From: Candidatus Poribacteria bacterium
Lineage (GTDB): Bacteria; Poribacteria; WGA-4E; WGA-3G
DNA length: 64,000 bases
Reading direction: 5' to 3'
Assembly: GCA_963663765.2 (NCBI GenBank)
Contig: CAXXUA010000015.1
Coordinates: 1-64,000, forward strand
In this document: positions 1,163-56,733 of the stretch, piece after piece
Layout of the letters: each line of letters opens with the position of its first letter
Numbering within the stretch: position 1 is the first letter of the stretch
The notes under the pieces: model-generated
What the model saw: only the letters and a program-made list of their open reading frames with translations
What the model was told of the DNA's origin: nothing
Database searches by the model: none
Made by a program: the position numbers and the translations under genes

Positions 1163-1948
1163 TCAATTCATAAAATAAAAGTGGTTGGTGGGTCCATGTC
1201 CTTCTCCAATATTCAGTGCGTGTTCAATCGCTTTTGTAATATATACTTTCGCCTCAAGTATTGCAGAATTCAAATCCTTACCCTGTCCCAAATGTGTAGC
1301 AATCGCAGCTGAGTAAGTACAACCTGTTCCATGTGTATTTTTTGTATCAATTCGTTCTGCTTCATAAAATGTCCAGTCCCCGTCACAATATAGGACATCT
1401 GTTGCTTTGTCTTCACTCAGATGTCCTCCTTTTACCAATACTGCATGACACCCAAGCCTTGCTATGGTTTTGGCAGCAGATTTTGCATCGTCTAAAGATA
1501 GGATTTTTTTCTCTGCAAGGAGTTCTGCTTCGTGAATATTCGGAGTGATGACTGTTGCAATTGGGATGAGTTTATGCATCAAACTATTGATGGCTTCTGC
1601 TTTCAAAAGCGGGTACTTACTCTTAGATATCATAACGGGGTCAACTACGATGGATGAGGGATTATATTCTTGTAGTTTTCGTGAAACCGATTCCACAATG
1701 TTTGAGGATGACAACATACCAGTCTTTACACTGGAAATATCAAAGTCGGAAAATACCGCATCAAGTTGCGCTTCAATCAAAAGAATTGGTAAATCGTAGG
1801 CATCAGTAACAGTAACAGTATTTTGTGCGGTTACAGAAGTAATCGCAGACAAAGCATAACCACCATTTGCAGATATTGCCTTTATGTCTGCTTGAATACC
1901 CGCTCCACCCCCTGAATCTGAACCAGCAATTGTAAGTATCTGTTTCAT
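1163..1948 (-). CDS. thiD: Hydroxymethylpyrimidine/phosphomethylpyrimidine kinase
   Basis: LTIAGSDSGGGAGIQADIK, VVDPVM, TPNxxEA, NTHGTGCT motifs. Confidence 0.95.
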   Translation of the reverse strand: MKQILTIAGSDSGGGAGIQADIKAISANGGYALSAITSVTAQNTVTVTDAYDLPILLIEAQLDAVFSDFDISSVKTGMLSSSNIVESVSRKLQEYNPSSIVVDPVMISKSKYPLLKAEAINSLMHKLIPIATVITPNIHEAELLAEKKILSLDDAKSAAKTIARLGCHAVLVKGGHLSEDKATDVLYCDGDWTFYEAERIDTKNTHGTGCTYSAAIATHLGQGKDLNSAILEAKVYITKAIEHALNIGEGHGPTNHFYFMN

Positions 1949-2329: not shown

Positions 2330-2365
2330 AAAAGAAAAAGGCAGATACCGAAAACGGATACCTGC
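2330..2365 (-). terminator. Putative intrinsic terminator for the minus-strand transcript that crosses the tandem array
   Basis: Minus strand GCAGGTATCCG-TTTT-CGGTATCTGC followed by CTTTTTCTTTT. Confidence 0.6.
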
Positions 2366-2370
2366 ATGTT

Positions 2371-4227
2371 ATACCAATTCAAATAAATCTTGTCTCATTA
2401 AGGAATTCTACTGTTTACAGGACGGTCTCGACCGGGAGGTCGCTCCTACCAGATTTCCGTTGCTAATGAGACATTATCACATGAAAATGGTATAATACCA
2501 ATTCAAATAAATCTTGTCTCATTAAGGAATTCTACTGTTTACAGGACGGTCTCGACCGGGAGGTCGCTCCTACCAGATTTCCGTTGCTAATGAGAGATTA
2601 TCACATGAAAATGGTATAATACCAATTCAAATAAATCTTGTCTCATTAAGGAATTCTACTGTTTACAGGACGGTCTCGACCGGGAGGTCGCTCCTACCAG
2701 ATTTTCGTTGCTAATGAGAGATTATCATATGAAAATGGTATAATACCAATTCAAATAAATCTTGTCTGATTAAGGAATTCTAATGTTTACTGGACGGTCT
2801 CGACCGGGAGGTCGCTCCTACCAGATTTCCGTTGCTAATGAGAGATTATCACATGAAAATGGTATAATACCAATTCAAATAAATCTTGTCTCATTAAGGA
2901 ATTTTAATGTTTACTGGACGGTCGCGACCGGGAGGTCGCTCCTACCAGATTTCCGTTGCTAATGAGAGATTATACATGAAAATGGTATAATACCAATTCA
3001 AATAAATCTTGTCTCATTAAGGAATTCTAATGTTTACAGGACGGTCTCGACCGGGAGGTCGCTCCTACCAGATTTCCGCTGCTAATGAGACAATATCACA
3101 TGAAAATGGTATAATACCAATTCAAATAAATCTTGTCTCTTTAAGGAATTCTAATGTTTACTGGACGGTCTCGACCGGGAGGTCGCTCCTACCAGATTTC
3201 CGTTGCTAATGAGAGATTATCACATGAAAATGGTATAATACCAATTCAAATAAATCTTGTCTCATTAAGGAATTTTAATGTTTACTGGACGGTCGCGACC
3301 GGGAGGTCGCTCCTACCAGATTTTCGTTGCTAATGAGAGATTATCACATGAAAATGGTATAATACCAATTCAAATAAATCTTGTCTCATTAAGGAATTCT
3401 AATGTTTACTGGACGGTCGCGACCGGGAGGTCGCTCCTACCAGATTTCCGCTGCTAATGAGAGATTATCACATGAAAATGGTATAATACCAATTCAAATA
3501 AATCTTGTCTGATTAAGGAATTCTACTGTTTACAGGACGGTCTCGACCGGGAGGTCGCTCCTACCAGATTTCCGTTGCTAATGAGAGATTATCACATGAA
3601 AATGGTATAATACCAATTCAAATAAATCTTGTCTCATTAAGGAATTTTAATGTTTACTGGACGGTCGCGACCGGGAGGTCGCTCCTACCAGATTTCCGTT
3701 GCTAATGAGAGATTATCACATGAAAATGGTATAATACCAATTCAAATAAATCTTGTCTCATTAAGGAATTTTAATGTTTACTGGACGGTCGCGACCGGGA
3801 GGTCGCTCCTACCAGATTTTCGTTGCTAATGAGAGATTATCACATGAAAATGGTATAATACCAATTCAAATAAATCTTGTCTCATTAAGGAATTCTAATG
3901 TTTACTGGACGGTCGCGACCGGGAGGTCGCTCCTACCAGATTTCCGCTGCTAATGAGAGATTATCACATGAAATGGTATAATACCAATTCAAATAAATCT
4001 TGTCTGATTAAGGAATTCTACTGTTTACAGGACGGTCTCGACCGGGAGGTCGCTCCTACCAGATTTCCGCTGCTAATGAGACAATATCACATGAAAATGG
4101 TATAATACCAATTCAAATAAATCTTGTCTCTTTAAGGAATTCTAATGTTTACAGGACGGTCGCGACCGGGAGGTCGTTCCTACCAGATTTCCGCTGCTAA
4201 TGAGACAATATCACATGAAAATGGTAT
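2371..4227. repeat. Tandem array of 15 x ~124-bp units; each unit has imperfect terminal inverted repeats and an internal GTAG-type REP hairpin
   Basis: Units start at 2371, 2495, 2619 ... 4105. Ends ATACCAATTC...TGTCTCATTA / TAATGAGA...AAAATGGTAT. Internal minus-strand GTAGGAGCGACCTCCCGGTCG(C/A)GACC. No spacers. Confidence 0.95.
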
Positions 4228-4247
4228 TACAATATCACCAATGGGTA

Positions 4248-4505
4248 TTACTCCGCCATCCTCATAATAGACTGAAGCCATTCCCCTTTAAAAGATGTTA
4301 TGTTCTCTGCTGTTCCAATAATAATACATTGCTTTGAAGCACAGACTCTATGATAATCACCTTCCTCTTGTTCATTTTCAGGTGTGGTGTATTCATGATT
4401 AAATAGATGGTATATATCAACTGAGTATGGATTTGCTTTCACTATATTTATGTACGAAATTGAGAAAACACAAAATAAGATTAATAAAAATGTGAATTTT
4501 TTCAT
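4248..4505 (-). CDS. Small hypothetical secreted protein (possibly truncated)
   Basis: MKKF-type signal peptide; start overlaps the stop of the upstream gene (ATGA). Confidence 0.55.
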   Translation of the reverse strand: MKKFTFLLILFCVFSISYINIVKANPYSVDIYHLFNHEYTTPENEQEEGDYHRVCASKQCIIIGTAENITSFKGEWLQSIMRMAE

Positions 4506-5530
4506 TTTATATCTCCCAAGGCACTACGCAAGTGCCTAATTAGTTGTTCGTCAGATTCAGATGGAAGTGTATATAGTCCTGTTGAATAAGGGTCTATATT
4601 GTAATTCCACCCACCTAAACCTTTTAGTTCTTCATCAGTCGTTTGTGCTAACATTATCCGTTTTATATCGGAAGTAGGGGCATGTCCAAAACCGAATCCA
4701 GAACTTACAGTTACGGGTATACCTTCAGCGTTTATAAAGGTTTCTTCGTATATGAATTCATAATTATAATCGTTTCCAGCATAAAACATTCTTTTATCTG
4801 ATAACTCATATTGGTTCCAATCCGAAGACTTGTGCCCTATCAAAACCTGCCTTAAAAAACTACTACGCGGTGAGTCAATATAATGTAGGACGGTAATCTC
4901 AGGGTAATCAAGCAGATGTTGAAACTGCCAATCCACCCTCCCACCTGCAGAACCTGGTTCCGCCCGTGATACATCACGATTCTCATAGTAAAAACGTTCC
5001 GCTTCTATATATTCTGGCCAAACTTCTGTGAGAGTACGTTTAGGGTTGTACTTTGTCAAAATCTTCAATGCCCTTGGAGCAGTCAAGTGCTGTATCTTAG
5101 ACAGATCTTCCACATCTGTTGTGTAAACGCCCACAAGTTCTTTTGGACATTGTAGATGTTCTGGAACACCGTTAGAAAAAAGTGAATTCGTAGATGTGAA
5201 ACCTCTGACATGAAGCACATTTGTTGTTTTGACTTCAGAAAACGTAGGTTTTGCTTCAAAAGACATTTGTTGTTCCACCGGCATTTCGTGCCAATGATCC
5301 TCGTGCCACACATACTTACGTCCGTCATCTGGCCGTGGCGGTCTGTTATCCACTTCAGGCACTTGCACCTGTTCGGAGGGTTGTTCGGTTTCTGTTTCCG
5401 TTTTGGGTTCTGGGTCGGCAAGTTCCTCTTTGAACCGTTTCATGTCTACGGACAGGTAAATTTGAAATGCCACGAAACCTACGATAAGTAGCGCGAGTCC
5501 GCCTATTGCCCACTGTAATTGTTTTGGCAT
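4502..5530 (-). CDS. Hypothetical membrane-anchored protein with HxxHxH motif
   Basis: N-terminal TM helix, acidic Pro-rich linker, WHEDHWH motif; AGGAG RBS. Confidence 0.8.
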   Translation of the reverse strand: MPKQLQWAIGGLALLIVGFVAFQIYLSVDMKRFKEELADPEPKTETETEQPSEQVQVPEVDNRPPRPDDGRKYVWHEDHWHEMPVEQQMSFEAKPTFSEVKTTNVLHVRGFTSTNSLFSNGVPEHLQCPKELVGVYTTDVEDLSKIQHLTAPRALKILTKYNPKRTLTEVWPEYIEAERFYYENRDVSRAEPGSAGGRVDWQFQHLLDYPEITVLHYIDSPRSSFLRQVLIGHKSSDWNQYELSDKRMFYAGNDYNYEFIYEETFINAEGIPVTVSSGFGFGHAPTSDIKRIMLAQTTDEELKGLGGWNYNIDPYSTGLYTLPSESDEQLIRHLRSALGDIK

Positions 5531-7976: not shown

Positions 7977-10900
7977 GTGTCAAAATTCATAAATAGTTTT
8001 GTTCAGTCTTACTTCAGTAAGGAGGCCAATTCATCTTTCTATTTTATTTGGTCGTCCTTTATCATTTTTCTTTTAATTGTAAGTCTGTTTGTTTTGCAGC
8101 CAAATGCGTGGGCAGGTCTGTCAAGTCTCACTGTAGATGCGAATGGCGATGCTGTTTTTAATGGAGCGGATGATGGAGATAAGTTAACAATTACCTTTAC
8201 AACTGATGATTTTGGTGAAGAAGATCAAGAATATAAGTATGAAATTAAACTTGATGATGGTAGAGTGATTACCATGGGTCCAGATGTTGATAATGGACAA
8301 ACGTTATCCAATAACCAAACTGTACAATATATATGGGATGGAACATTGCAGGAAAGTCAAAATAATCGACTCCCTGATGGCACTTATACGATACAGGTAG
8401 TTCTCATACCCGTTGAACCATCCACAGAACTGCCCGGTGAAATATTGGAACTCACTGCGATTGTAACAATTGACTCCACACCCCCAGTGATCGCTATAAA
8501 TTTTGAAGAAGCGCAGTTTTCACCACTCCTCTATTCACTCCCCATTTACTACGATTTAAACGAAGACGTAACAGATGCATGGTTGGAAGTACAAAAATCC
8601 CCGAATGATACTACCGTTGGAAGAGCCATTGAATTAGAAACTACATCTGGTAGCCATATTTATTATTGGAATGGCGGTGATGCGACTCATGAAGTTTTTT
8701 CAGATGGTCAATACACGTTGAGAATACGAGCAATAGACAAAAGTGGGAATGAAACTGTAACAAACAAGACAAGTGTTATTACAATTGACACAGAAGAACC
8801 CCGTATTACTGAAATAACTTTCAACGGTTCCACATCTATTACCGAAGGTAAATTTATTAATGATGTGATAGAGTCGATCAGTTTCACTGCGGATGATCCT
8901 GGTGGTACAGGTGTTAATCTAAATAGTAGTGATACTGAGATATTGATTAGACCTGTTGGTGGTAATTACATTACAGGTGTGTTGTCTATTGGTAACAACG
9001 CAACACTTACAATCAGCGATCCTTTAGATGAACGTGCTGAAAATGGAGAATATGATGTTATAGTCTTTGTATCTGATAACGTTGGCAACCTTGCAATGAA
9101 AAGTATCAGATTTACTTTTGACAATACAGTACCAGTGTTAAAGAGTGTTGCTACAAACAATGGAGAATTTACTCCGAGTAGTAGTTTACGGGGTAGGACG
9201 AACTTTGTTGAAGCTACATTGGAAGATAACACTGAATTGAATCTTACTACCTCAACAATACGTGTTATTGATCCGAATGGAAGTTCTGTTCTCGGTCAAC
9301 AGAGTAGTCCTGACACCAATATAATACGTTGGGAATTTCTTTCACCCTTATTAGCTGATGATGGATTGCAAGATGGTATATACAATATAGAAATTGTTGG
9401 TGGTGACAAAGCTGGTAACAGAACCGACCCTATTCAGATTTCATTTCGTTTTGATAATCTCGCCCCTGACATTGAAATGTTGAGTTCTACACGTGATGGT
9501 AATCCTTTCACAAGTATAGGTAATAGAATTTATCATAGTCTTCCTCTTAACCAGTTTGTGGTTACATATAACGATGGTGAATCTGGAAGTGGTATAGCAT
9601 TTTCTGGAGTAGAAGAGATTAGTTCAGTATTTTTTGCGAAGTCAAATCCTGATGGGAGCATAACAGAAATTTCAGGTGACGCATTTCAAGATACAAGAAA
9701 CGGTGTGCTAACTTACATTTTAAGCGATCCACTCCTGAATACCGATGGGAGTCAAGATGGTATTTACAGACTAAATGTCAAGGCAGCTGACACGATTGGG
9801 AATATTAAAACGACCAGTTATCAATTTATCTTTGATACCCAAGTTCCGACACTTTCCTCAACAGTACCAGCTGCAAATGCGACACTAGACAATTTATCGG
9901 AAGTCGTTGTCAACCTAACTGAAGTTACCAGTGGAATAGATTTCGTTCAGAGTTTATTTCTTCTTTCGCGTGTAGCTGGTGAAACTCAAGTAGAAGTTCC
10001 AGTGAATGTTACAGGTAACGGCAAAGATCAAGCAAGATTAAAGTTATTGGAACCGATGGCTTTAGATGGATCAGATGATGGAACGTATGTGATTGAAATT
10101 ACTCCTATAGATCTTGCCGGTAATGTTGGTGCTGTTGTACGTCGTCAGTTTTATCTGGTGAGTCAGACACAACCACAAGTGCGATTAACAACACCTACAA
10201 TGGGTACTGTAAATAGTTTGGGTGACATTACAGTAGAGATTGCTAATTATATCGGTTCAGGCATAAACTATGATCTATCAACAGTAGTTGTTAGAAATCC
10301 TGATGGAACCAATATCCAACAGTCACAAGTTGATTCAGATCCAGCAAATAATCAGTTGACTTGGCGTACCGAAGCGACTATCCCGCGCAATGGAACTGCA
10401 GATGGTGAATATACAATAACTGCGAGTATTAGAGATTTTTCTGGCGAAGTCTTTCTGGGGAATTTTTCGGTTGTTTTGGACACACAATTTCCATCAATCG
10501 ATAGAGTAAATGCATTAACTGACCCGCAGCAACAACTTTCAATCAGTAGCACAACTGACATCAACGATACATTCTCACAGATAAATGTTGAATTTGATAG
10601 TTCTGATGTAGACTTTGAAAGTACATTAGTTACTTTATCAGCACCCGATACCACTGAGATCGTGTTGCATCGTAGGCATGATGGTGGAAGTAATTTGACT
10701 CTGAATTTCCAAAATTTAGTTGATCTTGGTACATATACTCTTACGATTACCTCAAGTGACATTGCTGGCAATGTATCTGATCCACCCTATATTTTCAGAT
10801 TTAATTTAGAAATAGATGTCCCTGTAGTGAGTACAGTATTGATAGGAGGGAAGACAGCACCTATTGTCTATGTTAATGGCAGTAATCCGGAAATTATTGC

Positions 10901-13900
10901 CACGTTTGTTGATACAACTGGAACAGGATTAGCATTAGGTGATGGAGAATCAAGCATTGTTGTATTGAGTGAATCTGGTATAACAGTCCCGGGTCTAACA
11001 ACACCGAAGAACGACAATCAATTGGCCTGGCAACCGATAGCGTTACCGAATGATGGAAGTGCTGATGGCCAATATATTGTTTCAGTAACACCAGTAGATA
11101 AAGCTGGTCGTTCGGGTAATGTTGCAATACGTTCGTTCATATTTGATACGCAATCACCCCGAATATCAGATGCTGCCCCTGTAACACTACATCAACCAAT
11201 TTCATATATTGGTGGGAGTTTATCCCAATTTCAGTTTACCGTAGAAGATGTTGGTCCAGCAATGCTAAACTTAGACAGTCAAACCATCGGATTAAAGAAT
11301 AAGAATGACGAACCGGTTGCGGGACAAGTAACAAATGACGGTACCAACCAATTATTTTTTACACTTACATCAGCATTACCGACAGACGGTACTGCGGATG
11401 GTGAATATATCTTGACGGTTGATCTTGAAGACAAGGCTGGAAATAGTTATCAGTCTGAACATAAAATACTATACGACTCACAAACACCACAACTGACTTC
11501 TGTTTCTCTGAATACTGATGTTCCCTTAGATCTCACTCCATATCAAGTTACTAATCTAACCGAATCAATCAATCAATTGGCTCTCAATTTTAGTGAATTG
11601 TCGCAAATAGATTTTGCAAATACACAGATAACATTAATGGGACCGGAGGGTGCTGCCGTTCCATTGACATTAGAGAACAACGGTAGAGACCAGATCGTTG
11701 TCAGATTTGTCACATTATCTCAAGGTGGTTTGTATACGTTGTCCATTACACCGCAAGATATAGTTGGAAATGTTATACAAGGTGCAATCCCGTATCCATT
11801 CAGACTGATGATAGAAGTACCAGAGTTAAGTTCTGTAATAGCAAATTCAGTTGATGACTCTTTTGAACTCACTTCATATCAAATTACTGATATTTCTAAT
11901 TCTATCGGTAGCCTAACGGTTTCATTTTCAGATGGAGCTCGTGTTGACTTTGAAAACACAAACATAATTCTGATTGGTCCTGATGGGCAAGAAATTTCTG
12001 TTACACAAGAAGAAATAGAAGACTCCCAATTATTTGTTCTCTTCGTTCCATTAACGCAAAGTGGTCTATACGCACTTATTGTTACGCCTCATGATACAAT
12101 TGGAAACGTTGCACAAAGAAGTATACGATACCAGTTTAGACTTGATATTGCTCTTCCAAAGGTTAGTTCTGTTCTCATTGGTGGTAGACTTGGTACTAAT
12201 GTCTATGTAAATAGTGCTGATACCAATATCGTTGTTACGTTTACAGACACTTCAGGGGTAGGTTTAGCGTTAGGTGACGGTGGATCAGAAATTAGTGTTA
12301 ATAGTGAAGACGGTTCTGTAGTTTCTGGTATAACTACTTCCAGCGGAACTAATCAGTTAACTTGGACACCCTCTGTCCTACCTACTGATGGTAGTGCTGA
12401 TGGACGTTATACGGTTACCATAACACCTATTGATAAAGTTGGACGTACTGGTGCAGTTGTGAATAGACACTTTATTTACGATACTCAGGAACCTCGTATA
12501 TCAGCTGCAACACCCGTAACACTACATCAACCCATATCTTATGTTGGGGGAAGTTTGACACAGTTTGTGTTTACAGTAGAAGACGTTGGTCCTGCTTTAC
12601 TTGATCTTGATATGCAATCAATTTCTCTTGAGAAAGAGAGTGGTGATGTTGTAGCTGGCACGATCACTGATGATGACACAAATCAACTCTTCTATACACT
12701 CTCAACACCGTTGCCTACAGATGGTAGTTCTGACGGTTCATACATTTTAAATGTAAATCTAATAGATAAAGCAGGTAACCGTAAGCATGTTCAACACAAC
12801 ATTATCTACGACTCACAAACACCTCAAATAGTTTCTGTTACTCTGAATACTGATTCATCCTTAAACCTTACACCTTATGAAGTAACTGAACTTTCAGAAA
12901 CTATCAACAAACTGACAGTGAGTTTTGATGAATTGACTCGTGTAGACTTCGCGAATACGGTGGTTACACTAACAAGTCCAGATGATGTAGCTATTCCATT
13001 AACTTTACAAAACAATGGAACTGATGTATTATCTGCCAGTTTCGTGTCTTTAGCACAAAGTGGTATGTACTTGTTATCAGTTACACCACAAGATATTATT
13101 GGTAATGTTGTACAAGGTGCAGTCCAGTATCCATTTAGATTGAAGTTTGCTACACCAAATATAGAGTCGGTGAAAGCCAACGGTCAAGATACATCCTTTG
13201 ATCTTTCTGCGTATCAGACAACAGAAATATCTGATACTATCAATAGCTTGACTGTGTCTTTCACAGATGCGATGCGAGTTGACTATGAAAACACGCAAGT
13301 CACGCTACAAGGGATTGATGGACAAGAGATACCGGTCACACTTGAAGGTGAAACGGGTTCAGATTTAGTTGTGCGTTTTGTATCTTTGACGCAAAGCGGA
13401 GAGTATTCATTGTCTGTGAGAGTGCAAGACACATCAGGTATTGTTGCAAAAGGGGCAATCCAATATCCATTTAGATTGAAGTTTGCTACACCAAATATAG
13501 AGTCGGTGAAAGCCAACGGTCAAGATGCATCCTTTGATCTTTCTGCGTATCAGACAACAGAAATATCTGATGCTATCAATAGTTTGAGTGTATCGTTCAC
13601 AGATGCGATGCGAGTTGACTATGAAAACATGCAAGTCACGCTACAAGGGATTGATGGACAAGAGATACCGGTCACACTTGAAGGTGAAACGGGTTCAGAT
13701 TTAGTTGTGCGTTTTGTATCTTTGACGCAAAGCGGAGAGTATACCCTATTAGTGAGGGTACAGGACACATCAGGTAATGTTGCACAAGGTGCAGTCCAGT
13801 ATCCATTTAGATTGAAGTTTGCTACACCAAATATAGAGTCGGTGAAAGCCAACAGTCAGGATACATCCTTTGATCTTTCTGCGTATCAGACAACAGAAAT

Positions 13901-16900
13901 ATCTGATACTATCAATAGCTTGACTGTGTCTTTCACAGATGCGATGCGAGTTGACTATGAAAACACGCAAATCACGCTGCGAGGGATTGATGGACAAGAG
14001 ATACCGGTCACACTTGAAGGTGAAACGGGTTCAGATTTAGTTGTGCGTTTTGTATCTTTGACGCAAAGCGGAGAGTATTCATTGTCTGTGAGAGTGCAAG
14101 ACACATCAGGTAATGTTGCACAAGGTGCAGTCCAGTATCCATTTAGATTGAAGTTTGCTACACCAAATTTAGAGTCGGTGAAAGCCAACGGTCAAGATAC
14201 ATCCTTTGATCTTTCTGCGTATCAGACTACAGAAATATCTGATGCTATCAATAGTTTGAGTGTTTCGTTCACAGATGCGATGCGCGTAGACTATGAAAAC
14301 ACGCAAGTCACGCTGCGGGGTATTGATGGACAAGAGATACCTGTGACACTTGAAGGTGAAGCGGGTTCAGATTTAGTCGTGCGTTTTATCTCCTTGTCGC
14401 AAAGCGGAGAGTATACCCTATCAGTGAGGGTACAGGACACATCAGGTAATGTTGCACAAGGTGCAGTCCAGTATCCATTTAGATTGAAGTTTACTACACC
14501 AAATTTAGAGTCGGTGAAAGCCAACGGTCAAGATACATCCTTTAATCTTTCTGCGTATCAGACAACAGAAATATCTGATACTATCAATAGCTTGACTGTG
14601 TCTTTCATGGATGCGATGCGCGTTGACTATGAAAATACGCAAGTCACGCTGCGGGGTATTGATGGACAAGAGATACCGGTCACACTTGAAGGTGAAACGG
14701 GTTCAGATTTAGTTGTGCGTTTTGTATCTTTGACGCAAAGCGGAGAGTATACCCTATCAGTGAGGGTTCAGGACACATCAGGTAATGTTGCACAAGGTGC
14801 AGTCCAGTATCCATTTAGATTGAAGTTTGCTACACCAAATTTAGAGTCGGTGAAAGCCAACGGTCAAGATACATCCTTTGATCTTTCTGCGTATCAGACA
14901 ACAGAAATATCTGATACTATCAATAGCTTGACTGTGTCTTTCACGGATGCGATGCGCGTAGACTATGAAAATACGCAAGTCACGCTGCGGGGTATTGATG
15001 GACAAGAGATACCGGTCACACTTGAAGGTGAAACGGGTTCAGATTTAGTTGTGCGTTTTGTATCTTTGACGCAAAGCGGAGAGTATACCCTATCAGTGAG
15101 GGTACAGGACACATCAGGCAATGTTGCACAAGGTGCAGTCCAGTATCCATTCAGATTGAAGTTTGCTACACCAAATTTAGAGTCGGTGAAAGCCAACGGT
15201 CAAGATACATCCTTTGATCTTTCTGCGTATCAGACTACAGAAATATCTGATGCTATCAATAGTTTGACTGTGTCTTTCACAGATGCGATGCGAGTTGACT
15301 ATGAAAACACGCAAGTCACGCTGCAGGGTATTGATGGACAAGAGATACCCGTGACACTTGAAGGTGAAGCGGGTTCAGATTTAGTTGTGCGTTTTATCTC
15401 CTTGTCGCAAAACGGAGAGTATACCCTATCAGTGAGGGTTCAGGACACATCAGGTAATATTGCACAAGGTGCAGTCCAGTATCCATTTAGATTGAAGTTT
15501 GCTACACCAAATATAAAGTCGGTGAAAGCCATCAGTCAAGACACATCCTTTGATCTTTCTGCGTATCAGACAACAGAAATATCTGATGCTATCAATAGTT
15601 TGAGTGTTTCGTTCACAGATGCGATGCGCGTTGACTATGAAAACACGCAAGTCACGCTGCGGGGTATTGATGGACAAGAGATCCCGGTCACACTTGAAGG
15701 TGAAACGGGTTCAGATTTAGTTGTGCGTTTTGTATCACTGACGCAAAGCGGAGAGTATACCCTATCAGTGAGGGTTCAGGACACATCAGGTAATATTGCA
15801 CAAGGTGCAGTCCAGTATCCATTTAGATTGAAGTTTGCTACACCAAATTTAGAGTCGGTGAAAGCCAACGGTCAAGATACATCCTTTGATCTTTCTGCGT
15901 ATCAGACAACAGAAATATCTGATGCTATCAATAGTTTGAGTGTTTCGTTCACAGATGCGATGCGCGTTGACTATGAAAACACGCAAGTCACGCTGCGGGG
16001 TATTGATGGACAAGAGATCCCGGTCACACTTGAAGGTGAAACGGGTTCAGATTTAGTTGTGCGTTTTGTATCACTGACGCAAAGCGGAGAGTATACCCTA
16101 TCAGTGAGGGTTCAGGACACATCAGGTAATATTGCACAAGGTGCAGTCCAGTATCCATTTAGATTGAAGTTTGCTACACCAAATTTAGAGTCGGTGAAAG
16201 CCAACGGTCAAGATACATCCTTTGATCTTTCTGCGTATCAGACAACAGAAATATCTGATGCTATCAATAGTTTGACTGTGTCTTTCACAGATGCGATGCG
16301 CGTAGACTATGAAAACACACTAGTCACGCTGCGGGGTATTGATGGACAAGAGATCCCGGTCACACTTGAAGGTGAAACGGGTTCAGATTTAGTTGTGCGT
16401 TTTGTATCACTGACGCAAAGCGGAGAGTATACCCTATCAGTGAGGGTTCAGGACACATCAGGTAATGTTGCACAAGGTGCAGTCCAGTATCCATTTAGAT
16501 TGAAGTTTGCTACACCAAATTTAGAGTCGGTGAAAGCCAACGGTCAAGATACATCCTTTGATCTTTCTGCGTATCAGACTACAGAAATATCTGATGCTAT
16601 CAATAGTTTGAGTGTTTCGTTCACAGATGCGATGCGCGTTGACTATGAAAACACGCAAGTCACGCTGCGAGGTATTGATGGACAAGAGATCCCGGTCACA
16701 CTTGAAGGTGAAACGGGTTCAGATTTAGTTGTGCGTTTTGTATCACTGACGCAAAGCGGAGAGTATACCCTATCAGTGAGGGTTCAGGACACATCAGGTA
16801 ATGTTGCACAAGGTGCAGTCCAGTATCCATTTAGATTGAAGTTTGTGGTGCCTGGAATAGCATCGGTAAAAGCAAATACAGCCGATTCCTCTATGAATCT

Positions 16901-19900
16901 TATTCAACACCAGATAACTGAACTATCAGAATCTATTAATAGTCTTACGCTTGAGTTCACTGATGCTATGCAAGTAGACTTTGATAACACCGTTGTCACT
17001 TTAACAGGTCCAAATGAAGAAAATATTGGTCTTACACTTGAAGAAAATGACGATCTTCTGCTGATAGTTCATTTTATTCCATTGACACAAAACGGTAATT
17101 ACACGCTTTCTGTTACTCCTCAGGATAAAGCAGGAAATGTAACGACACAATCTATTCAGTACCAGTTCAAACTGGATATGACACTTCCATCAGTAAGTTC
17201 TGTCGTTATTGATGGAAAATTTGGTTCAACCGTATATGTACGAAGTTCAATCCCAAGAATAGTTGCTACTATTACAGATCCTATCGGTGTCGGCGTGACA
17301 TTTGGAGATGGCGGATCTTCAATTGTAGTAAGAAATTCGGGAGGGGATCAAATTGATGGTACTATCACTTCAAACGGTACAGATCAGTTAATATGGACTC
17401 CAATCCCATTACTTACAGATGGCACTGCAGATGGAATATACACAGTTGCAATCACACCTATGGATAAAGCAGGACGTTCAGGTACAGTTGTAACACGTCA
17501 GTTTATTTTTGATACACAAGCACCACGGATAACATCAGCAAGTCCCGTGACCCTGCATGCACCTACTTCGTATATAGGAGGCGGCTTGACTCAATTCGTC
17601 TTGACTATAGAGGATGCAGGACCCGCTGGTTTGATATATAGTTCTCAAGTAGTTGCTTTGTTAGATGGAAATGAAAAACCTGTTCCTGCGGCACTGACAC
17701 ATGATGAACTTACAAATCAACTATATCTTACCTTAAACAAACCTTTTGCAAGTGATGGAAGCGAAGATGGTCCGTACACGCTACATGTATTATTGATTGA
17801 CAAGGCAGGTAATCAACTAACGTCTCAATTCACACTTGTGTACGATTCAATAGTTCCAATCATATCCTCTGTGGAGGTAAATACTGCCGGTAATCCAACA
17901 GCACTTAGTCAGAATGAAGTAGCGGATCTCTCTGAATCTGTTGATACAATTACGATTAAGTTTGATGAAGCAACACGCGTTAACTTCGCGAATACCACTG
18001 TATCACTCCTTGATCCAGACGACTTAACCGTCCCGCTTTCCGTAGGAAATGATGGTGTATCTCAAATGACATTAAGATTTGTTGAATTGACCAAAATCGG
18101 TCAATATACATTGTCTGTGACTCCCCAAGATATTGCTGGAAATGTAAGACGAAGTCCGAATCAATACGCATTTAATCTTGAGTTTATTCTACCTGATGTT
18201 GAATCTGTCGTTATCGGTGATACAATTACGCTTGGTAGCGGGGACATCGCCTATGTCAATGCAGAGAATATAGTGATAGTAGCAAACTTGCTTGATCCAG
18301 CAGATACAGGATTGTCATTTGATAGTCTAACCGGTTCAGACATCTTAGTTGCTACACTTGATGGAATTATTGTTCCAGGTTCAATTGCAACAAATGGTAA
18401 GGACGTACTCGCTTGGAGTCCTTTGACGTTGTCAAGTGATGGGAGTTCTGATGGTAGATATGCAGTATATGTTACACCCGTAGACAAACAGGGGCGTGAA
18501 GGGAGTACAATCTACCGTGAATTCATATATGATACACAAACTCCAGAAATTACAAGCGCTTCACCCATAAATCTTAGTCAACCGGTATCGTATATCAGTG
18601 CAAGTCTAACGCAACTTCAATTCACACTTCAGGATGTTGGTCCTGCTGACTTAACACTTGCAGATCAAGTTGTTAGACTTCGTAATCAAAGTGGTGGAAT
18701 AATACCAACCAAACTGACTAATGATACAAACAATCAACTTTACCTTACATTGGATCAACCCCTGCCTCTTGATGGAAGTCAAGATGGCAATTACACAGTA
18801 GAAATAGAATTATCAGACAAAGCTGGAAATGTTCTCACATTGAATCACCCCATAGTCTATGATACTCAGGCACCAACTGTCGTCAGTACCGTTCCTGAAG
18901 ATGGTGCACTTCTTACCGAAGACATCACACAGTTTCAGGTTAATCTGAATGATGAAGGTGGAAGCGGCATTGATTGGGATGTAACTTCTGCAATTCTTGT
19001 TGATCCAAATGGAGTTGAAATTTCTGGTGAACTCTCCAGTAATGGTACAACACAGTTGACGTTAAGGACAAATCAGCTCGTTGCGGATGGACGTTATATT
19101 ATTCGTGTTCAGGCAGTTGATAGGGCAGGGAACGGCAGTAGTTCCGTTTTTGATCGTAGTTTCCTATTGTCCAGACGGCTTCCTGCAGTTATCTCTACAT
19201 CACCTATTACTGCACCGCAAGACGAAGCATATACAAATGAAGAGATTGAAGAAATTAGAGTCTTACTTGAGACAGCTGATGAAAGACATCTTTCTACAGT
19301 CCGTCTGTTAAATGCTTTAGGACAAGTTATCGCTGGACAACAAAATCGTCAAGAAGATGGTTTAGTCTATACATTGGTTCGTCCGCTTGCAACAGATGGT
19401 TCGGAGGACGGTATCTACACGATTGAGTTCACACCCATAAGTTCATCAGGACGTAGCGGCGAGGTTCAACAACTTACTTTTACTTACGATACACAAATAC
19501 CTGAGATTGAAACTGATGCAATCAACCTAATCGTATCAGAACCAGAAGTAAATAACTCTCTTGTGGAAATCCGAGTGGTTATTACAGATAACGAAGCAGG
19601 TATAGACTGGGAAAATCTTGATGAAGATTGGTTGTCATTTGAAATGCAATCACCCAATGTAACAGACATTGAAGGACAACTTTCTTATGAGTCCGGCGAA
19701 GTAGAAACACTTGTATTTCGTCTTACAGTTCCACTTGCAGACGATGGTTCTGCGGATGGTGAATACAAAATCACTGTTACACCCACAGATAAAGCAGGTA
19801 ATGGAGAGGAAACTTACGAAAAGGTTTTCACCTATGATACAAGTGCACCTATAATCGATCCCAATTCACTGTTAATCAATGATGTGCCTTTACTTATAGA

Positions 19901-20909
19901 TATTGATTTGGAAGATTATCCGAGTGCAATATCTACATCAGGTGGCGTTGTCATTCAAGCGAGTGTTACAGACACTGGATTAGGAGTTAATCTTTCACAA
20001 TCAAGAATAGTAATCACCAATCCAAATGGGCAAGAAGTAACGGGTACAACCCAACAGAACGGCATTGATACGATTGTTTTCAAATCTGATGGACTTAATA
20101 TTGAAGGAATGTACGGAGTACAAATTACAGGAATTGGAAATGATTCTGAACTGCTTGGTTTTGCTCCTAAAGGCTCAATGACTACGACATTCCTATATGA
20201 AACCACATCTCCCACGGCTATTGTAACAAACGACGGTGGTAAGAATGAATTTACCGATGAAGCAATACCATTTGAAGGTACTGCGTCAGATCCAGAAGGA
20301 GTTCGGAGAGCTGGCGGTGCGCAAGGTGGTGACGGAGAGATACCCATACCTGCATCAGGCGTCAAGTTTGTTGAGATCGTTGGTACTGGTCCGGATGGAC
20401 AACCAATTGAACCTATGCTTGCTACGGATGAAAGCAATGCACAACAGCCCGCGTGGAGTATGTGGTCTGTTGACTTCTTACCAACAAGTTCAGGTGAATA
20501 CGATTTGGACATTCGCGTCACGGACAATGCTGGGAACTCATCTGAGTATGATATTGGTGAATATACGATGTCTGTATCCTTCTCATTCAAAGGAAAAACA
20601 TTCGGTTGGCCAAATCCACTTAGACATTCAAAGAACGATGTAGCGTATATATCCTTTGACTTAAATACAGCTACAGATGAAACCGTAGAAGTGACACTCT
20701 ACATTTATGATTGGGGTGGAGACCTTGTGTATTCTAAAACCCATGCCAATGTTACAGTTGGTGAACGAAATGATGCAGAGATTAAATGGAATTTGGATAA
20801 TCAAGCTGGAACGCCAGTAGCACGCGGCATTTATGTGTTCCGTTTAGAAGCAACCAATGCAACAGGGAATAGTGCAAACGCCGTCGGAAAATTACTTGTC
20901 GTTGACTAA
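7977..20909 (+). CDS. Giant (4310 aa) secreted Ig-like repeat surface protein with FlgD-Ig-like domains and a T9SS-like C-terminal domain
   Basis: N-terminal hydrophobic signal; dozens of beta-sandwich repeats ending DxAGN...DTxxP; C-terminus WPNP...IYDxxGxLV...WNLDNQAGTPVARGIYVFRLEA...GKLLVVD. Confidence 0.88.
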   Translation: MSKFINSFVQSYFSKEANSSFYFIWSSFIIFLLIVSLFVLQPNAWAGLSSLTVDANGDAVFNGADDGDKLTITFTTDDFGEEDQEYKYEIKLDDGRVITMGPDVDNGQTLSNNQTVQYIWDGTLQESQNNRLPDGTYTIQVVLIPVEPSTELPGEILELTAIVTIDSTPPVIAINFEEAQFSPLLYSLPIYYDLNEDVTDAWLEVQKSPNDTTVGRAIELETTSGSHIYYWNGGDATHEVFSDGQYTLRIRAIDKSGNETVTNKTSVITIDTEEPRITEITFNGSTSITEGKFINDVIESISFTADDPGGTGVNLNSSDTEILIRPVGGNYITGVLSIGNNATLTISDPLDERAENGEYDVIVFVSDNVGNLAMKSIRFTFDNTVPVLKSVATNNGEFTPSSSLRGRTNFVEATLEDNTELNLTTSTIRVIDPNGSSVLGQQSSPDTNIIRWEFLSPLLADDGLQDGIYNIEIVGGDKAGNRTDPIQISFRFDNLAPDIEMLSSTRDGNPFTSIGNRIYHSLPLNQFVVTYNDGESGSGIAFSGVEEISSVFFAKSNPDGSITEISGDAFQDTRNGVLTYILSDPLLNTDGSQDGIYRLNVKAADTIGNIKTTSYQFIFDTQVPTLSSTVPAANATLDNLSEVVVNLTEVTSGIDFVQSLFLLSRVAGETQVEVPVNVTGNGKDQARLKLLEPMALDGSDDGTYVIEITPIDLAGNVGAVVRRQFYLVSQTQPQVRLTTPTMGTVNSLGDITVEIANYIGSGINYDLSTVVVRNPDGTNIQQSQVDSDPANNQLTWRTEATIPRNGTADGEYTITASIRDFSGEVFLGNFSVVLDTQFPSIDRVNALTDPQQQLSISSTTDINDTFSQINVEFDSSDVDFESTLVTLSAPDTTEIVLHRRHDGGSNLTLNFQNLVDLGTYTLTITSSDIAGNVSDPPYIFRFNLEIDVPVVSTVLIGGKTAPIVYVNGSNPEIIATFVDTTGTGLALGDGESSIVVLSESGITVPGLTTPKNDNQLAWQPIALPNDGSADGQYIVSVTPVDKAGRSGNVAIRSFIFDTQSPRISDAAPVTLHQPISYIGGSLSQFQFTVEDVGPAMLNLDSQTIGLKNKNDEPVAGQVTNDGTNQLFFTLTSALPTDGTADGEYILTVDLEDKAGNSYQSEHKILYDSQTPQLTSVSLNTDVPLDLTPYQVTNLTESINQLALNFSELSQIDFANTQITLMGPEGAAVPLTLENNGRDQIVVRFVTLSQGGLYTLSITPQDIVGNVIQGAIPYPFRLMIEVPELSSVIANSVDDSFELTSYQITDISNSIGSLTVSFSDGARVDFENTNIILIGPDGQEISVTQEEIEDSQLFVLFVPLTQSGLYALIVTPHDTIGNVAQRSIRYQFRLDIALPKVSSVLIGGRLGTNVYVNSADTNIVVTFTDTSGVGLALGDGGSEISVNSEDGSVVSGITTSSGTNQLTWTPSVLPTDGSADGRYTVTITPIDKVGRTGAVVNRHFIYDTQEPRISAATPVTLHQPISYVGGSLTQFVFTVEDVGPALLDLDMQSISLEKESGDVVAGTITDDDTNQLFYTLSTPLPTDGSSDGSYILNVNLIDKAGNRKHVQHNIIYDSQTPQIVSVTLNTDSSLNLTPYEVTELSETINKLTVSFDELTRVDFANTVVTLTSPDDVAIPLTLQNNGTDVLSASFVSLAQSGMYLLSVTPQDIIGNVVQGAVQYPFRLKFATPNIESVKANGQDTSFDLSAYQTTEISDTINSLTVSFTDAMRVDYENTQVTLQGIDGQEIPVTLEGETGSDLVVRFVSLTQSGEYSLSVRVQDTSGIVAKGAIQYPFRLKFATPNIESVKANGQDASFDLSAYQTTEISDAINSLSVSFTDAMRVDYENMQVTLQGIDGQEIPVTLEGETGSDLVVRFVSLTQSGEYTLLVRVQDTSGNVAQGAVQYPFRLKFATPNIESVKANSQDTSFDLSAYQTTEISDTINSLTVSFTDAMRVDYENTQITLRGIDGQEIPVTLEGETGSDLVVRFVSLTQSGEYSLSVRVQDTSGNVAQGAVQYPFRLKFATPNLESVKANGQDTSFDLSAYQTTEISDAINSLSVSFTDAMRVDYENTQVTLRGIDGQEIPVTLEGEAGSDLVVRFISLSQSGEYTLSVRVQDTSGNVAQGAVQYPFRLKFTTPNLESVKANGQDTSFNLSAYQTTEISDTINSLTVSFMDAMRVDYENTQVTLRGIDGQEIPVTLEGETGSDLVVRFVSLTQSGEYTLSVRVQDTSGNVAQGAVQYPFRLKFATPNLESVKANGQDTSFDLSAYQTTEISDTINSLTVSFTDAMRVDYENTQVTLRGIDGQEIPVTLEGETGSDLVVRFVSLTQSGEYTLSVRVQDTSGNVAQGAVQYPFRLKFATPNLESVKANGQDTSFDLSAYQTTEISDAINSLTVSFTDAMRVDYENTQVTLQGIDGQEIPVTLEGEAGSDLVVRFISLSQNGEYTLSVRVQDTSGNIAQGAVQYPFRLKFATPNIKSVKAISQDTSFDLSAYQTTEISDAINSLSVSFTDAMRVDYENTQVTLRGIDGQEIPVTLEGETGSDLVVRFVSLTQSGEYTLSVRVQDTSGNIAQGAVQYPFRLKFATPNLESVKANGQDTSFDLSAYQTTEISDAINSLSVSFTDAMRVDYENTQVTLRGIDGQEIPVTLEGETGSDLVVRFVSLTQSGEYTLSVRVQDTSGNIAQGAVQYPFRLKFATPNLESVKANGQDTSFDLSAYQTTEISDAINSLTVSFTDAMRVDYENTLVTLRGIDGQEIPVTLEGETGSDLVVRFVSLTQSGEYTLSVRVQDTSGNVAQGAVQYPFRLKFATPNLESVKANGQDTSFDLSAYQTTEISDAINSLSVSFTDAMRVDYENTQVTLRGIDGQEIPVTLEGETGSDLVVRFVSLTQSGEYTLSVRVQDTSGNVAQGAVQYPFRLKFVVPGIASVKANTADSSMNLIQHQITELSESINSLTLEFTDAMQVDFDNTVVTLTGPNEENIGLTLEENDDLLLIVHFIPLTQNGNYTLSVTPQDKAGNVTTQSIQYQFKLDMTLPSVSSVVIDGKFGSTVYVRSSIPRIVATITDPIGVGVTFGDGGSSIVVRNSGGDQIDGTITSNGTDQLIWTPIPLLTDGTADGIYTVAITPMDKAGRSGTVVTRQFIFDTQAPRITSASPVTLHAPTSYIGGGLTQFVLTIEDAGPAGLIYSSQVVALLDGNEKPVPAALTHDELTNQLYLTLNKPFASDGSEDGPYTLHVLLIDKAGNQLTSQFTLVYDSIVPIISSVEVNTAGNPTALSQNEVADLSESVDTITIKFDEATRVNFANTTVSLLDPDDLTVPLSVGNDGVSQMTLRFVELTKIGQYTLSVTPQDIAGNVRRSPNQYAFNLEFILPDVESVVIGDTITLGSGDIAYVNAENIVIVANLLDPADTGLSFDSLTGSDILVATLDGIIVPGSIATNGKDVLAWSPLTLSSDGSSDGRYAVYVTPVDKQGREGSTIYREFIYDTQTPEITSASPINLSQPVSYISASLTQLQFTLQDVGPADLTLADQVVRLRNQSGGIIPTKLTNDTNNQLYLTLDQPLPLDGSQDGNYTVEIELSDKAGNVLTLNHPIVYDTQAPTVVSTVPEDGALLTEDITQFQVNLNDEGGSGIDWDVTSAILVDPNGVEISGELSSNGTTQLTLRTNQLVADGRYIIRVQAVDRAGNGSSSVFDRSFLLSRRLPAVISTSPITAPQDEAYTNEEIEEIRVLLETADERHLSTVRLLNALGQVIAGQQNRQEDGLVYTLVRPLATDGSEDGIYTIEFTPISSSGRSGEVQQLTFTYDTQIPEIETDAINLIVSEPEVNNSLVEIRVVITDNEAGIDWENLDEDWLSFEMQSPNVTDIEGQLSYESGEVETLVFRLTVPLADDGSADGEYKITVTPTDKAGNGEETYEKVFTYDTSAPIIDPNSLLINDVPLLIDIDLEDYPSAISTSGGVVIQASVTDTGLGVNLSQSRIVITNPNGQEVTGTTQQNGIDTIVFKSDGLNIEGMYGVQITGIGNDSELLGFAPKGSMTTTFLYETTSPTAIVTNDGGKNEFTDEAIPFEGTASDPEGVRRAGGAQGGDGEIPIPASGVKFVEIVGTGPDGQPIEPMLATDESNAQQPAWSMWSVDFLPTSSGEYDLDIRVTDNAGNSSEYDIGEYTMSVSFSFKGKTFGWPNPLRHSKNDVAYISFDLNTATDETVEVTLYIYDWGGDLVYSKTHANVTVGERNDAEIKWNLDNQAGTPVARGIYVFRLEATNATGNSANAVGKLLVVD
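13101..16845 (+). repeat. 11 tandem near-identical 336-bp (112-aa) intragenic repeats
   Basis: TGAAGTTT(G/A)CTACACC recurs every 336 bp from 13141 to 16501. Confidence 0.95.
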
Positions 20910-28169: not shown

Positions 28170-28280
28170 TTAGTAGTAAGTATAATTGTCAGGACTTGCG
28201 CATCCAACGGTAGTCTTGTTTTGATGATTGTTATTTTTTATTCGGTAATCTATAAAATCGTTTAGACACTTTTATATATA

Positions 28281-28546
28281 ATACCATTTTCATGTGATAA
28301 TGTCTCATTAGCAGTGGAAATCTGGTAGGATGGACCTCCCGGTCGCGACCATGAGGTTGCTCCTACCGAAGAGAGTAACCCCCTGCCAGTAAACAGTAGA
28401 ATTCCTTAATGAGACAAGATTTAGCGGAAATCTGGTAGGATGGACCTCCCGGTCGCGACCATGAGGTTGCTCCTACCGAAGAGAGTAACCCCCTGCCAGT
28501 AAACAGTAGAATTCCTTAATTAGACAAGATTTATTTGAATTGGTAT
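28281..28546 (-). repeat. Dispersed, inverted relative of the 124-bp array unit, with an internal duplication
   Basis: ATACCATTTTCATGTGATAATGTCTCATTA ... AGACAAGATTTATTTGAATTGGTAT is the reverse complement of the array unit ends; the REP-containing core occurs twice. Confidence 0.85.
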
Positions 28547-28666
28547 AAGTTGATAAACCTAATCATGATACAATGGAGTAAAACGGAAGTCCTCAAGAAA
28601 CAGATAGACTCTATCCAAACTATAGTATCATTAGAACAAACATATATTAAACACAGAGGTGCTCTC

Positions 28667-53289: not shown

Positions 53290-53981
53290 CCGGGTGTGTA
53301 AAGTGTTTGCACAGAGGTACTAACTTTTGTTCTCTTTAGTCCCGTAGGGACGCAATGTTTATAGAATGACGTTATCACATCCTCTCTCTTTAGTTCCGTA
53401 GGAACGATAGAGAAGGATAAACATATCGTCCCTACCAAATCAACGCCAAATGCGCCAAATCAACGGCATGAATGCCATTAAGGCATTCCCCGTATGGCAT
53501 TTGTCAGGACTAAAAAGACGTGGGGATATGTATTTCTATAAACATATCGTCCCTACGGGACTGAAGAATATGGTTAATATTAACAATATTTCTTTATATT
53601 GACACTTAATGAAGTTGACAATCAAAATCGGTAGTTGTATTCGTAGGGGTTGGGTTCCCCTACCCGTTTGGTTTTTGAGTTTGCGTAGATCATGTGTGGA
53701 AACAACGCCCCTACGAATACACAACTTGAACGTCAAAACTCATTAGGTCTCTCTGTGTCCGCAATCTCTCATTTAATCAGTTGCGGCGGGGCACAGAGAC
53801 CCGGGGAATGCCTAAAGAAGCATGCGCGTATGGCATGCTCCATGATTCATACCCGGGGAATGCCAAAAGGCATTCATACCCGGGGAATGCCAAGAGGCAT
53901 TCATACCGTTGATTTCTTGATTTCTTGATTTCGCCCTACAATGGAGAGTGGGATGTTTGTGCAAAAACTTTACACACCCTG
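53290..53981. mobile_element. Composite non-coding element bounded by ~24-bp inverted repeats, filled with REP clusters and mini-elements
   Basis: CCGGGTGTGTAAAGTGTTTGCACA / TGTGCAAAAACTTTACACACCCTG; no clear target duplication. Confidence 0.65.
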
Positions 53982-56332: not shown

Positions 56333-56733
56333 CAGGGTTATTCAGTTTTAAGAATCTATCGTTATTCCAGTTAACTTTGGGTTAAAATTAGTGAATATAT
56401 AGGGATTTTTGATGTATTCTTTATTATTGTCAGAACCAGGATTTTCAAATCAAGAAATCAACGGTATGATTGCTATATAGCATTCCCCGGGTATGAATGC
56501 CGTATGGCATTCCCCGGGATTAGAAGACTATCAAGATTTCTTTCATCAAATCCTATTCCAAAAGAGGCATAAACGCATATAAAAAACCCTTGACGAGGTA
56601 AATCCTGAAAATCTACTAATCTTGAAAATCCTGGTTCAGACAAAGCATGAGTTAACTCCACAAAAATTAACTAATTTAAGGATTAACGACTGTGGTAGAA
56701 TTTACAAAATAAATTGAAATCTAAATAACACTA
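56333..56733. mobile_element. MITE family A carrying a TGTC(A/T)GAACCAGGATTTT element (56428-56642) that itself holds mini-elements
   Basis: Left TIR CAGGGTTATTCAGTTTTAAG, degenerate right TIR, perfect 9-bp direct repeat GGAATTTGT. Confidence 0.8.

Follow-up and report, generated by a model that had tools for sequence, protein, structure and literature searches.

A 15-unit tandem array in a poribacterial genome, probably a satellite-like amplification of one REP-carrying miniature element

How does a bacterial genome come to carry 15 copies of a 124-bp sequence, head to tail and without spacers? The question is raised by positions 2371-4227 of a stretch of 64,000 nucleotides from a Candidatus Poribacteria bacterium (assembly GCA_963663765.2, contig CAXXUA010000015.1, positions 1 to 64,000), hereafter called the window. 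A reading made by a model from the letters alone (the sequence-only reading) had described the unit as a miniature element around a GTAG-headed repetitive extragenic palindrome (REP). It had proposed that the array is a concatemer from rolling-circle or circle-integration events linked to a REP-associated tyrosine transposase (RAYT), or else a structured multi-unit RNA locus. We analysed the array, its relatives in the genome and its surroundings. The repeated element is a MITE, short for miniature inverted-repeat transposable element, that carries the REP as cargo. The array is probably a satellite-like tandem amplification of one copy of this MITE, mobilised by an IS630-type transposase and grown by unequal exchange.

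The architecture of the array was determined from the window. Tandem Repeats Finder reported a period of 124 at 2371-4227, with 15.0 copies, 96% matches, 0% indels and a score of 3385. Cutting at a conserved start yielded 15 units, each of 124 or 123 bp. All internal junctions (14/14) read GGTA-TAA-TACC at 124-bp spacing, with one target triplet per junction and no spacers. On the plus strand, 2372-4226 is thus composed of 15 MITE cores (121 bp each, TACC...GGTA) and 14 TAA triplets. The first of these triplets lies at 2493-2495; with its flanks it reads TGGTATAAT, a predicted extended -10-like motif that is found at every junction. The outer target-site duplication is TTA, with a left copy at 2369-2371, read directly, and an equal right copy at 4227-4229; the intact gene of the sister species G016 also has TTA at the homologous place. 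The unit is bounded by terminal inverted repeats that are imperfect (each end reads TACCA, 14 bases, TGTCTCATTA), and a single GTAG-headed REP hairpin lies on the minus strand, at 2419-2450 in unit 1 and at the same position in all units. Each unit forms a long end-to-end hairpin (-31.6 to -37.8 kcal/mol, z -2.3 to -4.7). These results bear out the sequence-only reading with regard to the 15 head-to-tail copies, the lack of spacers, a period that is not divisible by 3, the imperfect inverted repeats and the GTAG-headed hairpin.

One unit was compared by BLAST with the whole genome (15 contigs, 6.35 Mb), which gave 899 matches, with 195 left arms, 202 right arms and 519 others, mostly the hairpin part alone. 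Pairing of the arms resolved 165 MITE copies at 111 loci. The length of 125 copies was exactly 157 bp, and nearly every column of the consensus was at least 90% conserved. The MITE proper is a non-coding core of 154 bp, TACC...GGTA, and the 157-bp period is this core plus one target triplet. The centre of the MITE is a 44-nt palindrome of two inverted GTAG-headed REPs, and the copies in relatives have it in perfect form. Compared with the consensus of the 157-bp family, 15/15 units of the array lack 33 bp, namely one REP and the spacer before it, and the single hairpin of each unit is the remaining half of the double-REP palindrome. The same BLAST search found no copy of the 124-bp deletion variant elsewhere in the genome.

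Of the MITE loci of the genome, 93 hold a solo copy, and the other 18 are tandem arrays with 2 to 15 copies. This count of monomers and arrays, which the sequence-only reading had suggested, agrees with its view that a normally scattered element was amplified in place. The array at 2371-4227 is the largest of the 18 and the sole one with a 124-bp period; in most other arrays of the 157-bp MITE, the period is the core plus the triplet. Further large arrays of the same MITE, each with its own diagnostic variants, lie at G000:C8:4850-6411, G000:C6:167652-168718 and G000:C3:401289-402230 (10, 7 and 6 copies; G000 denotes this genome and C its contigs). One of these three mixes 157-bp and 141-bp periods, with a junction that loses 16 bp of the right end. 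The window itself holds a second MITE copy on the minus strand at 28279-28548, with its core at 28282-28545, an internal 110-bp duplication and TAA/TAA flanks. The inverted relative noticed earlier at 28281-28546 is accordingly a full element. A 1617-bp stretch with exact MITE ends (locus L014, G000:C5:745180-746796) was considered as an autonomous parent and rejected, since it is a MITE split by an unrelated 1.46-kb insertion sequence (IS) of DDE_5 type; this IS has its own inverted repeats. A search of a plasmid collection returned no match. A cyanobacterial source for the DNA was considered too and rejected, as the HIP1 octamer is rare (29 copies).

The flanks of the solo copies were then used to define the target. 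Identical triplets flanked 61 of the 89 solo MITEs with definable ends (TTA 37, TAA 21, TCA 2, ATA 1), which indicates that the MITE makes a 3-bp TWA target duplication (W, A or T). In another 14 of the 89, the flanking triplets were unlike at the middle base only. A candidate mobiliser was found in the same genome. It is a 1145-bp IS with two overlapping open reading frames (ORFs), a helix-turn-helix (HTH) ORF and a DDE_3 ORF, which span positions 5-126 and 113-297, respectively, of the NCBIfam IS630 model NF033545. The DDE_3 ORF scored 141.5 bits with NF033545 (cut-off 100) and gave an E of 3.9e-23 with Pfam DDE_3. The IS is present in three copies (G000:C15:522825-523969, G000:C4:687231-688375 and G000:C7:121347-122491; loci L013, L016 and L017), flanked by TAA/TAA, TTA/TTA and TTA/TTA. 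As the three copies are 100% identical, the IS appears to have been active recently. Its ends are TACC...GGTA, a subterminal TCTCATTA motif is common to the IS and the MITE, and a CTGCTAATGAGA stretch is also shared with the right end of the MITE. From the ends and the target duplication, we infer that an IS630-family transposase mobilises the MITE. The same features point to a DDE transposase, rather than the single RAYT of the genome, as the mobiliser.

Given that the sequence-only reading had tied the GTAG REP to a RAYT, the RAYT and its REPs were compared with the MITE. No RAYT gene lies in the window, as that reading had stated, and the genome has one clear RAYT gene elsewhere, at G000:C4:621661-621987 (NF047646, 122.4 bits; cut-off 80). 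The other strong Y1_Tnp matches resemble IS200-type genes by score and length. The RAYT is flanked (L005, G000:C4:620161-623487) by four REP pairs at 118-bp spacing upstream and, downstream, by over 25 REPs spaced 30-40 bp apart. These REPs are of two variants, GTAGGAGGGAAC... and GTAGGAGCGATC..., compared with GTAGGAGCGACC in the MITE. As to a RAYT flanked by this very REP, which the sequence-only reading had suggested looking for, there is one RAYT, and the GTAGGAG head is common to its flanking REPs and the MITE REP, but the stems differ. The boundaries of the array unit are the MITE ends plus one target triplet, and the repeated unit is not the REP itself. In the sister species G016, the same double REP forms the heart of another palindromic element in front of thiD (locus L031, G016:C133; about 60-170 bp upstream of the promoter). 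Several kinds of REP-cored palindromic element thus circulate within the genus.

We asked how often two MITE ends abut. A target model of position weights, derived from 58 solo sites, was used to score all 231,393 TWA sites of the genome. The model predicted at most 0.45 insertions exactly beside an existing copy among 165, and 18 arrays were observed (about 40-fold). The mean weight of the end-adjacent target context was 2.8 versus 0.96, an approximately 3-fold preference. The bases adjoining the target triplet favour T then A, as the MITE's own end supplies. The abutted-end word GGTATWATACC occurs 50 times in this genome, compared with 7 and 9 occurrences of two control words. It was also found in 24/40 genomes of the genus, and the backward control word in 0/40. 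The finding that abutted ends are above chance and widespread in the genus suggests that founder dimers probably arise when a copy inserts next to a resident end.

Different elements abut in the same manner. The 157-bp MITE abuts a different, 91-bp MITE via TTA at G000:C5:1125534, and the family with the 91-bp period (ends TACCCAATTAACG...) forms its own TTA-joined array at G000:C4:320592-320774. The relative G003 has two unlike MITEs in the order A-B-A, joined by TTA triplets, and a 126-bp MITE with the same ends and another core stands in 2.8 tandem copies in the relative G020. Since arrays with the same ends have other cores, the stacking belongs to this group of ends and not to the REP. 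Separately, a 349-bp repeat family with similar ends (TACCA.../...TCTCATGA) was observed at 14 places in this genome (for example, G000:C5:37968-38316 and G000:C15:347293-347641); in all likelihood it is another MITE that belongs to this transposase group.

The orientation of neighbouring copies is uniform. All pairs within 1 kb (62/62) have the same orientation, and the abutted junctions of the 157-bp MITE join a right end to a left end in 30/30 cases. The target preference was considered as a cause of this head-to-tail bias and rejected, because the measured preference is symmetric. The favoured account of dimer formation is that insertion occurs beside a resident end in any orientation and that inverted pairs would afterwards be lost, since long palindromes are unstable.

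The variation among the units was examined for traces of array growth. The nearest relative of each unit lies inside the array (15/15). Together with the private deletion in all units, this indicates growth in place. There are 15 variable columns, 10 of which have variants common to non-adjacent units, a mosaic pattern. Moreover, units 8-9-10 recur as units 12-13-14, with 0, 1 and 3 differences. The most divergent units are 3, 14 and 15, near the two ends of the array. In the larger arrays of the genome, the nearest relative is a member of the same array for 49/52 units. This was the case for only 5/20 units of the two-copy arrays, and many dimers thus resemble two independent copies. A single rolling-circle burst would leave only private changes; the variants here are shared, as is expected from repeated unequal exchange and conversion. 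The array does not look like the product of one rolling-circle burst, and to judge from its units it appears to have grown in place, mainly by unequal recombination.

The following course of events would account for these results. An IS630-family transposase would move the MITE, and one copy would have landed at a TTA inside a gene that has since decayed. In the landed copy, or in an early dimer, 33 bp would have been deleted, one REP among them. Two copies joined head to tail by a single triplet would then have arisen, most likely when a second copy inserted into the triplet beside the resident end. Finally, RecA-type unequal exchange between the 124-bp repeats would have expanded and shuffled the array to 15 units.

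Several observations weigh against this account. The likeness between the ends of the IS and the MITE is partial (22/29 bases for the best pair, by our own count). The IS630 family as a rule makes a 2-bp TA target duplication, and the duplication found at the MITE and at all three IS copies is the 3-bp TWA. Only head-to-tail pairs are seen, yet the measured target preference is symmetric and an orientation-blind insertion would also give inverted pairs; it has to be assumed that the instability of long palindromes removed them. The internal triplet of the array is TAA, whereas the outer copies are TTA/TTA, and double insertion or slippage would give TTA throughout. A mismatch between internal and outer triplets is also found in the arrays at G000:C2:267128 and G000:C6:421551. 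The mismatch would be accounted for if a base had changed early on, or if a dimer had arrived ready-made, moved by its outer ends. Blocks of units may, moreover, have travelled as composite elements and not by recombination. Finally, the length of 15 units is that of the assembly and is not confirmed by single reads. The evidence from public runs, which include sponge metagenomes, consists of short-word (Logan) contigs that end inside the array; read joints, which have short sides or unknown inserts and most likely stem from other copies of the family, were left unused. In the runs of two studies, the contigs bridge both edges of the array (X1, 2288-2395 and 4184-5200; X2, 2288-2395 and 4198-5200) and do not span the interior.

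The surroundings of the array were compared with those in relatives. To its left lies thiD (phosphomethylpyrimidine kinase; 1163-1948, minus strand; Pfam PF08543, E 6e-94). The predicted thiD promoter is at 2026-2055 on the minus strand (TTGACC, 18-base spacer, TG-TATAAT; 11/12 matches) and is kept in the relatives G045 and G016. It is about 315 bp from the array, with a terminator in between: an intrinsic-terminator-like hairpin followed by a T run (2341-2365, minus strand) stands 3 bases beyond the left end of the array and matches G016 L035:17-54 at 87%. To the right, a gene remnant occupies 4228-4505 on the minus strand, of which an 85-aa ORF at 4248-4505 is what survives, as determined by tblastn with the G016 protein, blastn and the ORF listing. 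Compared with the 470-aa secreted protein of G016, only residues 1-63 and 142-170 are recognisable. An assignment of the 85-aa ORF to Glyco_transf_22 was weak (E 0.0014, below the cut-off) and was rejected, as the ORF is a remnant of the secreted-protein gene. Upstream of it, an intact gene of 342 aa (4502-5530, minus strand) belongs to a large paralogous family and is transcribed towards the array. Its G016 orthologue is 88% identical, and its product had no match in Pfam or NCBIfam.

In G016, about 935 bp of the gene for the 470-aa secreted protein lie between the terminator and the upstream-gene landmarks, where the window has the array. Since the window keeps only fragments of this gene, the array sits in a dead gene. 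The region more than about 120 bp upstream of thiD is non-syntenic in G045, G016, G020 and G005, and the comparison was worked from the other flank. In run X5, a diverged strain carries the array's right edge and, with it, a 231-letter stretch without counterpart in the window; G016 has about 233 bp there (L035:1083 to 1317). The insertion is thus older than the deletion of this stretch from the window.

How do other explanations fare with these data? The engine of growth could have been repeated transposase insertion, with units excised from the array re-entering its own junctions (TA-TAA-TA), which would be preferred targets beside two bound ends. The excess and wide occurrence of abutted ends, the many dimers that look like independent copies and the T and A supplied by the element's own end are all expected if so, and the heterologous abutments prove that insertion beside a resident end takes place. 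The end-adjacent preference is only about 3-fold, though, and none of the 15 units is of the 157-bp form, of which the genome holds about 150 copies. In addition, a duplication that spans three consecutive units is more readily explained by unequal exchange than by the insertion of single units. We therefore consider repeated insertion unlikely as the main engine. A concatemer made by rolling-circle or circle-integration events, with the RAYT (HUH) transposase acting on the GTAG REP, would agree with the REP in the unit, the RAYT of the genome and the dense REP arrays around it. It also predicts an internal TAA that differs from the outer TTA, as a circle formed elsewhere would have been inserted whole. 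We disfavour it and regard it as very unlikely. The period is the MITE core plus a triplet, the unit boundaries are inverted-repeat ends of DDE type and not those of the REP, and the REP variants that flank the RAYT differ from the MITE REP. Variants common to non-adjacent units contradict a single burst followed by independent decay, and MITEs with the same ends and other cores also form arrays, for which a REP is not needed. The RAYT link and rolling-circle growth of the sequence-only reading hence give way to IS630-like ends with a 3-bp duplication, mosaic variants and a duplicated three-unit block.

A function of the array was also considered, as tandem promoters, as a multi-hairpin RNA, for example a 3' tail with a stabilising or attenuating effect on the transcript of the upstream gene, or as a source of small RNAs. 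The TGGTATAAT at each junction is the same extended -10 as that of the conserved thiD promoter, and 35 promoter-like sites were predicted in the array compared with 9.8 +/- 3.2 in shuffled sequences. Each unit forms a long hairpin, and the array lies between the upstream gene and the conserved terminator. A hairpin is expected from the inverted repeats of any MITE, however, and the -10-like motif is a by-product of the MITE ends and the TAA. Rfam gave no match for the array, neither at the gathering score nor at E<=1, and the locus is not conserved, with coding sequence of a protein gene at the site in G016; the structured RNA locus of the sequence-only reading is not upheld by these results. 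The RNA run X10 covered 8/30 bins in pieces of 32-166 bases and is usable neither for nor against transcription; its pieces within the array are at most 59 bases long and lie over the REP part that is common to hundreds of other loci. We saw no evidence of a function for the cell, which we hold to be highly improbable; at most, the transcript of the upstream gene carries the array in its 3' untranslated tail. An assembly artefact, in which dispersed copies were collapsed or over-expanded, deserves attention because the genome is assembled from a metagenome and no public contig spans the array. It appears scarcely credible. The 124-bp variant exists only here and so is no pile-up of dispersed 157-bp copies, the differences among units are ordered and non-random, both edges are bridged in runs of two studies, and the diverged strain of X5 also reaches the last unit. 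Furthermore, 17 other arrays, as well as arrays in single-contig relatives, have the same architecture.

Satellite-like amplification of one MITE copy by unequal exchange therefore remains our preferred explanation. A bolder version of it, which we put forward tentatively and with more doubt than conviction, is that an IS630-family transposase with an atypical 3-bp TWA duplication prefers insertion beside the ends that it recognises. MITEs would thereby become stacked head to tail, with a target triplet shared between neighbours. Every new junction would then be a still better target, and arrays would be self-seeding and self-feeding before recombination reshaped them.

Other repeats were observed in the window. 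Positions 13101-16845 hold 11 tandem copies of a 336-bp unit (95% matches), which lie in an ORF of 4310 aa (7977-20909, plus strand) and give a giant protein with 112-residue repeats. Diverged tandem periodicities of 66, 132 and 198 bp are present at 61166-63139; if coding, 66 bp would give a period of 22 residues, as leucine-rich repeats typically have. At 53845-53907 and 56463-56518 there are two short 27-bp tandem repeats, which are about 2.6 kb apart and apparently mutually inverted.

That satellite DNA of animals and plants originates from tandem arrays born of transposons is textbook knowledge. In Drosophila, satellites derived from the P element, hobo and R1 are described as arising by double insertion followed by unequal exchange (McGurk & Barbash 2018, PMC5932611). 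As in that account, the copies here are head to tail with exactly one target duplication between them, and dimers are far above chance. The hobo array has about 16 copies, and its expansion and higher-order structure were likewise ascribed to unequal exchange (PMC5932611). In contrast to those eukaryotic, full-length elements (PMC5932611), the present case concerns a bacterium and a non-autonomous element of 121-154 bp; it also differs in that the internal triplet of the array is not the outer one. In corals, whole MITEs in tandem were called unusual and ascribed to replication slippage, not to independent transposition (PMC2872659). The coral element is of piggyBac type with a TTAA duplication in animal genomes, and the relevant section of that paper gives no end-to-end junction statistics.

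Among bacteria, tandem IS dimers such as (IS30)2 are known (Dalrymple 1987 and Prudhomme 2002, cited in PMC5932611). They resemble the junctions described here, with two copies in direct order, abutted ends and a spacer of target-duplication length. They differ in being full ISs of other families and reactive transposition intermediates, whereas here up to 15 units of an element assigned to an IS630-family enzyme are joined. IS30 targets its own ends. GTAG REPs (SMAG) and bacterial interspersed mosaic elements (BIMEs) are tied to RAYTs (Delihas 2011, PMC3184786), and a GTAG-headed GC-rich palindromic core and a RAYT with related REPs are found here too. Unlike REPs and REPINs, which lack inverted-repeat ends and a target duplication, the present unit is bounded by DDE-type ends and a duplication. 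Mycobacterial interspersed repetitive units (MIRUs), a class of variable-number tandem repeats (VNTRs, which are defined by their variation in copy number), are similar in being short, MITE-like, intergenic tandem units within transcription units; they are 40-100 bp long, and the passages on them in the same article name no defined transposase partner (PMC3184786). The word 'tandem' is absent from a 2024 review of prokaryotic MITEs (PMC10969869). In a full-text phrase search for tandem MITEs and MITE arrays, all matches listed concerned eukaryotes. The bacterial precedents that we found in print are tandem IS dimers and short VNTR-type repeats. In kind, the array is ordinary, as it belongs to a MITE family for which a plausible transposase partner exists; in degree and organisation, it is unusual for a bacterium.

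The array would be a bacterial counterpart of the birth of satellites from transposons in animals. With 18 arrays of one MITE, and arrays of other families in relatives, this genus offers a compact system in which the birth of arrays as dimers, their growth and their decay may be followed, and it is suited to the direct study of end-targeted insertion by a Tc1/IS630-type enzyme. Such arrays also fragment assemblies made from short reads, and they may wrongly be taken for CRISPR-like or small-RNA loci. If the more tentative view of a transposase that prefers its own ends is true, end-targeted stacking would amount to a general way in which transposases give rise to satellite-like DNA in bacteria, one that runs throughout this genus of sponge symbionts.

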